This document shows positions 8,908-52,669 of a stretch of 64,000 bases of DNA, piece by piece (within the stretch, counting starts at the first letter, position 1; the number at the start of each line of letters is the position of its first letter). This DNA comes from Candidatus Endomicrobium labiotermitis (GTDB lineage Bacteria > Elusimicrobiota > Endomicrobiia > Endomicrobiales > Endomicrobiaceae), in the NCBI GenBank assembly GCA_009778965.1, contig WRFE01000003.1, forward strand, positions 2,585-66,584, written 5' to 3'. The notes below the pieces were generated by a model that was given only the letters and a program-made list of their open reading frames with translations, was not told where the DNA came from and did no database searches. The position numbers were made by a program, and so were the translations under genes.

Positions 8908-8939
8908 ATTTGTTTACAAATGGTTGTATTGCTTTTAGC

Positions 8940-9088
8940 GTCATTGCGATGAGCAACGAAAGTTGCGAAGAAGCAATCCATTGTTACTCACATACCCCGT
9001 CGGCTTTTGCCGACACCCCTTTATCTTAAAGGGGAATAACGGCGGAAGACAACGCGGATTGCTTCGTCATTTTATTCCTCGCAATGAC
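8940..9088. repeat. Paired REP (REPIN-like) element
   Basis: gtcattgcg...gcaatc 8940-8978 facing gattgc...cgcaatgac 9057-9088. Confidence 0.75.
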
Positions 9089-9111
9089 ATCCGAGGAGAT
9101 ATCTTGCGATA

Positions 9112-33916: not shown

Positions 33917-34016
33917 ACCCTGGATTGCCGCGTCAGGATTTCGTCCTTCCTCGCAATGACGGCAACAACCTTTGCCGTTAACTTCACTCTCCACACTCCA
34001 CTCTTCAAACTGCCGT
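33917..34016. repeat. REP (33917-33962) plus pyrimidine heptamer-like tract
   Basis: accctggattgccgcgtcagg...ctcgcaatgacgg is 42/46 identical to 38882-38927 inside mnmE. Confidence 0.88.
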
Positions 34017-37124: not shown

Positions 37125-38015
37125 TTAGATATACAATTTTTCAGTTAGATTTACAAAGTCTGATAAAGAAAGTTTTTCGGGGCGCAGCATGGGGTCTAAA
37201 CTGCAGGATTTTAGAATTTCAGCGGCTTTGATTTTGTCGATATTTGCAAAAGAGCTCAAAGAGTTCAGAATGGTTTTTCTGCGCTGGCTGAAAGCGTGTT
37301 TTATAAAAGGGAAAAGCAGTTTATTCGGTTCAGGCGAATTTTTGTTTGTAAGTTTTATTACTGATGAAATTACTTTCGGCGGCGGATTAAAACATTTGGG
37401 CGAAACGTCAAAAAGGATTTCGCGGTTAGCGTAATATTGTGTAAAAAGCGAAATGTAGCCGTATTCGTCATCATCCGGATTAGCCGCAAGCCTTTCAATA
37501 ACTTCTTTTTGAAGCATAAGGACACATTGTGTCCAGCTTGGCATAGGCAGAATCTTTTGAATAATTGCGGTGCCTACATTGTAAGGGAGATTGGAAATAA
37601 CCTTGAAAGGCAAAGTGAAGAGTGAAGACTGAAGAGTTGAGTTCACTGCCATTTTCTGCGTCGTCATTGCGGCCTCTGAGCCGCAATCTTGTTGTAAATC
37701 GGAGATCGCGGGTCGTTGCCCGCAATGACAAATAGGTTTTTTGTCATCAATGTTTAGCTTTAAAAAATCAGCAGTTATTATTTCAATGTTATTAATGTTG
37801 TGGAATGAATAATAATAATTTAATTTCTGCGATAAAGCCGGATCTATTTCCACAGCGGTTAAATGTTTAACTTTTGGCTGTATAAGTTTTGTCAAAACGC
37901 CTTTTCCCGGACCGATTTCGAGGACATTGTCCTCATTAGTTAGTTCGGCGGCTTTGATTATGTTGTTTGCTATATTGTTGTCTATTAAGAAGTTCTGTCC
38001 GTGTTTTTGTCTCAT
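37125..38015 (-). CDS. rsmA: 16S rRNA m6,2A dimethyltransferase RsmA/KsgA with an in-frame repeat-derived insertion
   Basis: HGQNFL, LEIGPGKG, AVEID and NLPYN motifs; 51 aa between DFLK and KVISNLPY. Confidence 0.96.
   Translation of the reverse strand: MRQKHGQNFLIDNNIANNIIKAAELTNEDNVLEIGPGKGVLTKLIQPKVKHLTAVEIDPALSQKLNYYYSFHNINNIEIITADFLKLNIDDKKPICHCGQRPAISDLQQDCGSEAAMTTQKMAVNSTLQSSLFTLPFKVISNLPYNVGTAIIQKILPMPSWTQCVLMLQKEVIERLAANPDDDEYGYISLFTQYYANREILFDVSPKCFNPPPKVISSVIKLTNKNSPEPNKLLFPFIKHAFSQRRKTILNSLSSFANIDKIKAAEILKSCSLDPMLRPEKLSLSDFVNLTEKLYI
37663..37729. repeat. Paired REP element inside the rsmA coding sequence
   Basis: Terminal inverted repeats GTCATTGCGG...CCGCAATGAC enclosing two hairpins. 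Confidence 0.9.
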
Positions 38016-38574: not shown

Positions 38575-39957
38575 TCATTTTCCTATGCAAAAATTTGAGA
38601 AGATTGTATCCAAAATATCATGAGAGGTGGTTATTCCTAAAATATCTTCGTAGGCTGCTAAAGCGGTGCGAAGTTCAAACGCTGCGATTTCATCTGCGTC
38701 TTGCAGCATATATTGCTCTTTTGTTTTTTCCAAAGCGCATTGTGCTTTTTTTAGCAGGTCAAAATGACGGGATGTTATCATTAAATAATCGTTAGTTTCG
38801 GTTATTCCTGCTATTTTGGCAATAGCATCTAATAGTTCTGGGATTCCGGAGCCGGTTTTTGAAGATACGGCTAATGAAGCGACCCTGGATTGCCGCGTCA
38901 CGACTTTGTCGTTCCTCGCAATGACGGACGGTAAGTCAGATTTATTGACTACTTCTATTATAGGTGTATTTAAGTTTGATTTTGTTATAAAGTCCGCGAT
39001 TTCCTGATCGTTTTTATCTAAGGGCTGCGAGCCGTCTATTACCCATATTATTAAATCCGCTTTTTGCACGGCGTCTTTTGAGCGCTCCTGCCCTAAAACT
39101 TCAATAGAATTTTCTGTATGCGTTCTTATTCCCGCGGTATCTATTATTGTTAAAGGAATGCCGCGGCAGTCTATTATTTCTTCTATGGTATCGGTTGTAG
39201 TTCCCTCTATTTCAGTTACAATCGCGCGGTTTTTGCCTAAAATCGCGTTTAAAAGTGAAGATTTTCCTGCGTTTGGCTTTCCTATAATTGCGGCTTTCAA
39301 GCCTTTTTGCAGACTTTCGCTTACTTTATAGTTCTCTATAAGTTTTTGGTTTTGCTCTATTAAATTGCCAAGCCGCTCAGTCTTTTCTTCTCGCGATAAA
39401 AACATTATATTTTCTTCCGGATGGTCTAGCGACACTTCCATATAAGCAAGCAAATTAATAAGAGTATTTTTGATGCCTTTAATTTTGTTTGAAAATTCGC
39501 CGCTTACATTATTTAACGCTGCTTTCGCGGCAGCCGCCGTTTTGCTTGAAATTAAAGCGCAGACAGCTTCTGCCTGGGCCAGATCTTTTTTCCCGTTTAT
39601 AAAAGCTCTGTATGTAAACTCTCCGGGCTCGGCCGGACGCGCGCCGTTTTTGTATAAAAGGTCTAAAATCTCTTTTACAATAACAGGATTTCCGTGCGTT
39701 GAAATTTCAATCAAATCTTCACCGGTATATGTATCAGGGGCTTTAAAAAAGGCACATAGTACCTCGTCTATTTTGTTGTTTCCGTCAACTATATAACCGT
39801 ATTTTATTTGTTTATCTTGAGATTTCGTTTCGAAAATCTTTTCTATAATATCAGGCGACTGCCTGCCGGAAAGACGTATAACCGCGATCGCGGATTTTCC
39901 CGCGGCGGTCGATAAAGCGGCAATAGTATCTTCTGTTTCGTAATTCATAATGTTCAT
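38575..39957 (-). CDS. mnmE: tRNA modification GTPase MnmE/TrmE (start 39948 or 39957)
   Basis: DTIAALST, YTGED, GKPNAGKSS, GTTTD, DTAG, NKSD and FSNFCIGK motifs. Confidence 0.98.
   Translation of the reverse strand: MNIMNYETEDTIAALSTAAGKSAIAVIRLSGRQSPDIIEKIFETKSQDKQIKYGYIVDGNNKIDEVLCAFFKAPDTYTGEDLIEISTHGNPVIVKEILDLLYKNGARPAEPGEFTYRAFINGKKDLAQAEAVCALISSKTAAAAKAALNNVSGEFSNKIKGIKNTLINLLAYMEVSLDHPEENIMFLSREEKTERLGNLIEQNQKLIENYKVSESLQKGLKAAIIGKPNAGKSSLLNAILGKNRAIVTEIEGTTTDTIEEIIDCRGIPLTIIDTAGIRTHTENSIEVLGQERSKDAVQKADLIIWVIDGSQPLDKNDQEIADFITKSNLNTPIIEVVNKSDLPSVIARNDKVVTRQSRVASLAVSSKTGSGIPELLDAIAKIAGITETNDYLMITSRHFDLLKKAQCALEKTKEQYMLQDADEIAAFELRTALAAYEDILGITTSHDILDTIFSNFCIGK
38882..38927. repeat. 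REP copy in-frame inside mnmE (G4-G5 loop)
   Basis: 42/46 identical to the intergenic copy at 33917-33962; encodes SVIARNDKVVTRQSRV. Confidence 0.92.
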
Positions 39958-52572: not shown

Positions 52573-52619
52573 CAGCAGATAATAGAGAAAAAAGAATAGA
52601 TAACAGACAACAGCCTTTG

Positions 52620-52669
52620 TCGTCATTGCGAGAAGAAAACGAAGTTTTCGACGTGGCAATCCAGGGTTG
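52620..52669. repeat. REP copy (family also found in mnmE)
   Basis: gtcattgcgag...gacgtggcaatccagggtt; reverse complement resembles 33917-33962. Confidence 0.8.

Follow-up and report, generated by a model that had tools for sequence, protein, structure and literature searches.

A CGTC-tagged hairpin repeat in frame within the G domain of MnmE in an Endomicrobium species

How can part of a conserved enzyme consist of a dispersed DNA repeat and still keep the length that is usual for its family? The question is raised by a 64,000-nucleotide stretch of the genome of Candidatus Endomicrobium labiotermitis (contig WRFE01000003.1, positions 2,585 to 66,584 of the forward strand; here called the window), in which mnmE carries in frame a copy of a hairpin-forming repeat that we call type A. 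mnmE is an essential tRNA-modification GTPase gene. The genome, labelled G000 here, comprises 1.89 Mb in 107 contigs with a G+C content of 38%, and the names of its homologues place the organism in Endomicrobium (Elusimicrobiota). It was compared with three congeners, G001, G002 (E. proavitum) and G003 (a sister species). Our preferred answer, to which we give a probability of roughly 0.7, is that the mnmE segment is an oriented hairpin DNA repeat carried as a tolerated passenger, standing in place of older repeat material.

The repeat copy in the G4-G5 loop of MnmE

The 48-base repeat occupies 16 codons of mnmE, read from position 38929 down to 38882, and encodes SVIARNDKVVTRQSRV. In the protein this peptide is flanked by NKSDLP and ASLAVSSKTG, i.e., it lies between the G4 (NKSD) and G5 (SSK) motifs and forms most of the connection between them, as a preliminary description of the window had proposed. 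The coding strand of the region reads TTA CCG TCC GTC ATT GCG AGG AAC GAC AAA GTC GTG ACG CGG CAA TCC AGG GTC GCT, with the translation L P S V I A R N D K V V T R Q S R V A; the lysine- and arginine-rich segment of MnmE across the repeat is PSVIARNDKVVTRQSRVASL. On the minus strand the copy reads C-CGTC-ATTGCGAGG. Its outer and inner stems have 5 bp each; the internal loop between them has 5 nt on one side and 6 nt on the other, the terminal loop has 3 nt, and the CCA tail extends to GGG (Table 1).

A query made of the 18-nt arm finds 3 matches in the window, against 0.00 expected from shuffles. One of the two further type-A copies, an intergenic sister copy, had been reported to match the mnmE copy at 42 of 46 positions (38882-38927 against 33917-33962), and our recount agrees. 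Of the four differences, two form a C-G to G-C double change in the inner stem, one replaces C by T with a G-T wobble pair kept, and one is in the loop; all four preserve the hairpin. The compensatory change that had been pointed out is real, and all 5 inner pairs covary in the family.

Genome-wide, an nhmmer profile of 35 strict copies detects at least 83 type-A copies. Starting at the tag, these run CGTC, ATTGC, GAGGA, a variable hairpin of 5-6 bp, GACG(C/A)(G/A), GCAAT and then CCA. The internal loop GAGGA / GACGCG is conserved, other copies are tagged CGTC or TGTC, and many form inverted tail-to-tail pairs. In an alignment of 18 copies of equal length the arms do not vary, and each of the 5 inner pairs has changes on both sides (26 cells, 92% paired). 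The observed covariation score was reached by 0 of 500 shuffles, and shifting the partners by 1-3 columns abolishes the pairing. The strict type-A pattern is matched by 35 copies here, by 1-2 in each congener and by none outside the genus. The type-A termini occur verbatim in many phyla and groups, including Bradyrhizobium, Rickettsiales, Chloroflexota, Patescibacteria and Bacillota. The mnmE allele was found with 0 mismatches in other assemblies (ENA, Logan, JGI and NCBI; 5 contigs in all, including ERZ27257295 and SRR10512950), and the repeat in mnmE is therefore not an artefact of one assembly.

The host protein has all the features of MnmE/TrmE. The motifs GKPNAGKS, DTAG, NKSD, SSK and FCIGK are present, every invariant residue is retained, mnmE is single-copy in the genome and its partner gene mnmG is intact. 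An AlphaFold2 model built on an 81-sequence alignment gives a confident fold (predicted local distance difference test score, pLDDT, of 85) with TM-scores of 0.75-0.79 to 9hip_A and 1xzp_A, and the G domain exceeds that of solved MnmEs by only about 4 residues. Residues 339-354 are modelled as coil (mean pLDDT about 63), and strand beta-6 starts at R355-V356, which are encoded by the tail of the repeat. In a native-type orthologue, P0018, modelled likewise, residues 346-350 form a short helix (pLDDT about 88-90). As modelled, the repeat-encoded loop is without the short helix of native orthologues. The models suggest that a short helix and the start of a beta-strand can give way to 16 residues from a hairpin repeat with the fold undisrupted. 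Contacts between MnmE and MnmG are made by the N-terminal and helical domains, and the G domains pair with each other through their nucleotide face (PMC12397908). The G4-G5 connection is thus part of no known MnmE interface and is unlikely to be functionally critical. The enzyme most likely still works, and the insert would be neutral or slightly deleterious.

Table 1. Features of the mnmE locus and related repeat loci (window positions unless a G000 location is given)
Feature	Position	Strand	Basis and remarks
mnmE coding sequence	38575..39948	-	457-aa open reading frame (ORF); TrmE_N, MnmE_helical, G domain, C-terminal FCIGK; Pfam, named homologues
Type-A hairpin repeat (variant of CGTC-tagged repetitive extragenic palindrome, REP)	38882..38929	-	nhmmer C3:41466-41513, 49.5 bits, E 4.6e-13
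CGTC tag (GACG on + strand)	38923..38926	-	directly 5' of outer stem; tag definition PMC3733652
Outer stem arm ATTGC	38889..38893	.	pairs with GCAAT 38918-38922; invariant in the 18 aligned copies, 98.9% of cells paired
Outer stem arm GCAAT	38918..38922	.	partner of ATTGC 38889..38893; same 18-copy alignment
Inner hairpin ACGAC-TTT-GTCGT	38900..38912	.	variable, covarying repeat core; all 5 pairs changed on both sides across copies
CCA tail (TGG on + strand), then GGG	38886..38888	-	tail definition PMC3733652
G4 motif NKSD codons	38935..38946	-	K336 and D338 invariant in 81-sequence alignment
G5 motif SSK codons	38857..38865	-	sequence and alignment
Intergenic sister copy	33917..33962	-	between 104-aa ORF and dnaN; heptamer tract adjoining (33975-34010); 53.0 bits
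Third type-A copy in window, intergenic	52617..52667	+ (orientation opposite)	C3:55201-55251, 37.7 bits
Inverted type-B pair and heptamer tract, in frame in rsmA/ksgA	37615..37729	-	encodes CHCGQRPAISDLQQDCGSEAAMTTQKMAVNSTLQSSLFTL; second RNA-modification enzyme
Bracketed GIY-YIG loci	G000 C4:22959-23357; C1:83450-84190; C70:1850-2594; C23:7463-8210		GIY-YIG proteins at C4:23039-23254; C1:83710-83931; C70:2110-2334; C23:7723-7950

Repeats at the same site in relatives and in other genes

The loop between NKSD and SSK is 23 aa long in the window MnmE (22 aa by the earlier count) and 22-23 aa in most relatives, so the repeat is no net addition and the loop is of ordinary length, as had been noted. 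Measured from NKxD to the G5 turn, the span among 116 Endomicrobiia MnmEs is 35-36 aa in 74, 33-39 in 102 and 44-85 in 12, and it is 36 aa in the window. Outside one clade the sequence of the loop is conserved, e.g., LPSKINQNDIKNLAKFNTIINI in the native-type P0018. The window MnmE belongs to that clade, a group of 13 members (SH-aLRT 99) in which the loop ranges from 13 to 72 aa and is not alignable between members. The possibility, raised earlier, that the same peptide occurs in distant MnmEs can be set aside: SVIARND... is absent from about 160 related MnmEs (40 relatives' genomes and the 120 best database homologues).

At this site of MnmE, each of the three congeners has repeat-derived sequence of another kind, mainly heptamer tracts and GC-rich repeats. 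The loop contains an inverted pair of GAGAAGG-type heptamer tracts in G003, two direct AGTGRAR tracts in E. proavitum, and a tract pair around GC-rich repeat sequence in G001. AGTGRAR tracts give 8-31 pattern matches in each of the four genus members and are found in 0 of 5 genomes from other genera. Since the tracts are genus-wide and the type-A burst is species-specific, the loop of the genus ancestor would already have been tract-derived and the type-A copy would have come later. Between the shared anchors GACTTA and GCTTCAT there are 57 nt here and 72 nt in G003, both multiples of three. The preliminary description had proposed that the repeat replaced native sequence. The proposal is only partly right. 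The repeat is length-neutral, but the material replaced was probably older repeat, given what the congeners have there; on this comparison the REP most likely displaced an older repeat insert rather than the native loop. A decayed type-A REP in the mnmE loop of G001 was also considered, but the similarity noticed by eye has no statistical support (nhmmer E = 4) and the candidate was dropped. A composite element of tract and REP was rejected as well: of 50 type-A copies, only about 4 have a heptamer tract as a neighbour.

In frame, the tandem heptamers encode peptide repeats of 7 aa: ITNYELR from (ATTACGA)n, ITNNK from (AATAACA)n, and SEKWKVE from (AGTGRAR)n, which on the other strand yields STLHSSLFTL. 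Such tracts lie at 33975-34010 and 37615-37650 of the window and, elsewhere in the genome, at C30:~17100 (mfd), C2:~78000 (GHMP kinase) and C11:~3720. A GC-rich repeat encoding PSPLAGEGRGEG-like peptides stands in frame in MnmE and TrpF of relatives (L007, which is G001 mnmE; P0007; and L169, which is G001 trpF), and the PSPLAGEGRGEG-type repeat is another family that uses the same protein loops.

Type-A copies are by no means confined to mnmE. Fourteen lie deep inside long ORFs, and Pfam confirms 10 of the hosts, namely MiaA, a DUF362 Fe-S protein, a GT2 glycosyltransferase, TrpF, PdxA, CoaB, Dcd, a GHMP kinase, a radical-SAM enzyme and Mfd, and the number of unrelated housekeeping genes with a type-A repeat is at least 12. 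Survival in frame is easy because the conserved arms, as a direct reading of the sequence shows, contain no stop codon in any of the three frames of the CGTC-first strand. The frames used by intragenic copies are VIAR...TKQS, HCEE...DEAIQ and SLRG...RRGNPG on the tag-first strand and HGLPRQ...PRNDG, one frame of the other strand. Two simpler, abundant relatives, type B (AGATTGCGGnTC...GnCCGCAATGAC) and type C (TGGATTCCCGA...TCGGGAATGAC), have rough pattern counts of 175 and 76, and one or the other is found within KsgA, an ABC-type ORF, a glycosyltransferase and a helicase-like ORF. MnmE and RsmA/KsgA had been singled out as two RNA-modification enzymes that both carry such segments. Both do, but with repeats in many unrelated genes the proximity of the two is coincidental. 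As a side observation, a CCAGGG tail goes mostly with an intragenic type-A copy (5 of 7). Where the tail differs, the copy usually lies between genes, and a shorter TGGATTGCCGCGCTTCGCTCGCAATGAC repeat is often paired with it tail-to-tail at a distance of about 12-15 nt.

In other genes the repeat is additive, by about 15 aa in Dcd, 15 aa in the DUF362 protein and about 28 aa in MiaA. The corresponding sites of G003 are empty in DUF362 and MiaA. At five of the seven sites examined (mnmE, trpF, dcd, pdxA and coaB) G003 has repeat material at the identical codon position. In pdxA (G000 C30:21938-21982 against locus L193) the G003 element is a different tagged REP, TGTC-ATTCT...AGAAT-CCAG, that follows the same AATAACA tract. 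In coaB (G000 C5:3063-3104 against locus L201) the type-A arms of G003 are identical at 17 of 17 and 11 of 13 nt, the flanking codons at about 78%, and the core is wholly different.

Known repeat systems and candidate partner genes

GTAG REPs and REPINs are short GC-rich hairpins, often in inverted pairs, that are probably mobile as single strands and are associated with REP-associated tyrosine transposases (RAYTs). Type A is likewise a short GC-rich hairpin that often occurs in inverted pairs; unlike them, it is tagged CGTC and has no GTAG. By its tag, A/T-start stem and CCA tail, the mnmE element is instead to be placed with the superfamily of CGTC-tagged REPs and Ssn-related motifs (SRMs). 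Three features define CGTC-tagged REPs: the tag, CGTC or TGTC; a stem whose first two pairs are A-T and T-A; and an unpaired tail, roughly CCA. They are interspersed in tens to hundreds of copies and have no dedicated transposase (Di Nocera, De Gregorio & Rocco 2013, BMC Genomics 14:522; PMC3733652). Type A shares the terminal CGTC/TGTC tag, the A/T-start stem (ATTGC...GCAAT) and the CCA tail, and it is similarly multicopy and interspersed, with inverted pairs common and no RAYT. CGTC-tagged REPs have a single 8-9-bp stem with a 4-5-nt loop, whereas the mnmE copy has an outer stem of only 5 bp, an asymmetric internal loop that is conserved, and a second stem that is hypervariable; the type-C copies of this genome do have the single stem and the short loop. 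Copies inside genes for known proteins are on record from the same study, which covers five phyla, Elusimicrobia not among them (PMC3733652), and trmE/mnmE is absent from the gene targets in its supplementary tables. Intragenic repeats of this superfamily have thus been described before, and what is new here is the phylum, Elusimicrobiota, and the host protein, MnmE.

Two other systems are instructive. In Neisseria, the NTS (CGTCATTCCCGCGMAVGCGGGAATCYRG) brackets ssnA, the gene of a small GIY-YIG nuclease of single-stranded DNA, and Ssn nucleases act on such hairpins; copies in frame are not discussed in that paper, in which the word 'intragenic' has 0 occurrences (Chenal et al. 2025, Nat Commun 16:2388; PMC11893778). 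In that system ssnA is a single-domain gene (CDD cd10448), and the cognate Ssn cuts single-stranded DNA site-specifically beside the hairpin. With the NTS consensus the mnmE copy has in common its head, CGTCATT, and its tail, AATCCAG; near-NTS copies, TGTCATTCCCGCGAAAGCGGGAATCCAC, are present in the genome. The SRM pattern HGTCWYN(0-2)YYVSBRHN(0-5)WNVSBRGN(0-2)RNCYNB has 26 matches in the genome against 1-9 in shuffled genomes. In Rickettsia, palindromic elements (RPEs) stand in frame in many unrelated, functional housekeeping genes, mostly as surface segments (Ogata et al. 2000, 2002; PMC10969869). The copies described here are similar in that they lie in frame in conserved-protein ORFs with the motifs kept. 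The sequence kinship of type A with RPEs goes through the statement that RPE-6 is CGTC-1 and RPE-4 is CGTC-4 (PMC3733652). RPE-1 is about 100-150 bp long and strictly additive, whereas the mnmE element has 48 bp and is length-neutral on balance. Type A also differs from RPEs in its phylum and in its free-living or gut lineage, and in that the same protein sites hold different repeats in sister species.

As to the means of spread, a RAYT/Y1 transposase partner was rejected, since PF01797 has 0 matches in the genome and the control genomes were positive. The genome encodes four single-domain GIY-YIG ORFs (PF01541, 95-100 aa), each bracketed by inverted CGTC/TGTC-tagged hairpins with the tags outward and each by a different hairpin subtype (Table 1). 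The layout resembles that of NTS-ssnA-NTS (Chenal et al. 2025, PMC11893778). NCBIfam has no matching family for these ORFs, which give only weak sub-threshold matches to a group I intron endonuclease family. A partner gene bracketed by type-A copies, i.e., a REPtron-like unit, was likewise rejected: between inverted pairs there are only RtcB, a lipoprotein-like ORF and a citramalate/isopropylmalate (IPM)-synthase-like ORF. As a separate observation, an inverted pair of tagged REPs with ATTGCGATGAG and ATTGCGAGGAA heads, at 8939-9092 of the window, adjoins an RtcB-like gene.

Origin of the mnmE segment

Taken together, the data are best explained as follows. The type-A repeat multiplied in this Endomicrobium species, and one copy occupies, in frame, the surface connection between G4 and G5 of MnmE. 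The 16 residues read from it are predicted to replace a short helix with coil and to supply the first residues of strand beta-6. It leaves untouched the motifs of the GTPase, the domain that binds folate and the catalytic FCIGK tail. The normal length of the loop may reflect turnover: heptamer tracts probably invaded the loop in the genus ancestor, and the REP would stand where tract material was lost. The repeat probably spread through a single-stranded hairpin intermediate, with the four ssnA-like GIY-YIG nuclease genes as the only candidate partners.

Several observations weigh against this account. The order of tract first and REP later is a parsimony argument, and the loop retains LPS as native loops do, which could mean that a tract was never present. 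In coaB the arms surpass the flanking codons in conservation, and by this comparison an intact REP is no proof of youth. The RNA folding energy over 60 nt is no better than that of shuffles (z -0.6 to +0.7), which leaves covariation as the sole ground for the hairpin structure. Type-A copies bracket none of the GIY-YIG genes of the genome, and a GIY-YIG homologue is near 0 of 120 type-A-like loci from other phyla, a count that is uninformative because the repeats are dispersed. Finally, neither the mnmE copy nor its intergenic sister copy fits the published SRM pattern, and the mnmE copy is also off the strict NTS consensus.

It is unlikely that the REP instead took the place of about 15 native loop codons in one step of recombination or repair, with the length preserved. 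Such an event would leave a loop of 23 aa next to native loops of 22-23 aa, and would fit the left flank LPS and the I..ND of the segment, which stands at the same positions as in native LPSKINQND. In coaB and pdxA, moreover, one copy seems to have been written over by another at a given site, so events of the replacement type may happen. However, all three congeners hold other repeat material at the site, and a loop of 13-72 aa within the clade leaves no length constraint that needs explanation. The repeat is additive elsewhere, and CCGTCC, the codons of the 'PS', is common at REP flanks, which often read CCGTC/GTCC.

Less probable still is that the hairpin is functional in place, either as an RNA or DNA element (for mRNA stability, pausing, or as a site of Ssn cleavage or recombination) or as an adaptive loop of the GTPase. 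The invariant arms and covarying inner stem indicate that hairpin formation is maintained throughout the family, the coaB arms are better conserved between species than the neighbouring codons, and the action of Ssn nucleases on such hairpins in Neisseria is in line with a role of this kind. On the other hand, the same element stands in more than a dozen unrelated genes and at many intergenic sites, and its folding energy is unexceptional. Rfam gives no match over the window at the gathering threshold, and none around the intergenic copy even with E up to 1. The loop is modelled as a low-confidence coil away from the known interfaces, and the congeners manage with quite different sequences. 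An assembly chimera that put the repeat in mnmE, or a gene in decay, is extremely improbable: the 107-contig assembly does contain numerous repeats, but the sequence is identical in the 5 contigs from independent assemblies, and the frame is open over 457 codons in a single-copy gene with all invariant residues and an intact mnmG.

Beyond the passenger copy in mnmE, it is conceivable, although we regard it as doubtful, that the same surface-loop codon positions in Endomicrobium housekeeping proteins are reoccupied repeatedly by different hairpin repeats. The suggestion comes from the five of seven sites that are shared with G003 and from a core that is hypervariable yet always palindromic. If it is true, CGTC-type REPs may home to earlier repeat scars or tracts, or a copy-and-replace process may renew the core and keep the arms. 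This would expose the propagation mechanism of a superfamily without transposases, and the loops would be natural cassettes for protein-loop turnover.

The passenger reading extends the theme of selfish DNA inside proteins, so far from Rickettsia and a few other groups, to the Elusimicrobiota and, within a conserved GTPase, to the G domain. The four Endomicrobium genomes form a comparative series in which the same loops hold different repeats in each species and one family has just expanded in one species. Together with the candidate ssnA-like nuclease genes, the series offers a practical system for the question of how CGTC-tagged repeats spread. It also carries a warning for annotation, as odd loops of core enzymes in such genomes are repeat-derived and are not to be taken for lineage-specific functional motifs.

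One minor observation concerns the other strand of the repeat. On the TGGATTGC strand, antisense to mnmE, many type-A inner loops in the 18-copy alignment are C(UUCG)G. C(UUCG)G is a hyperstable RNA tetraloop, and its presence hints that some type-A copies act as RNA on the TGGATTGC strand.

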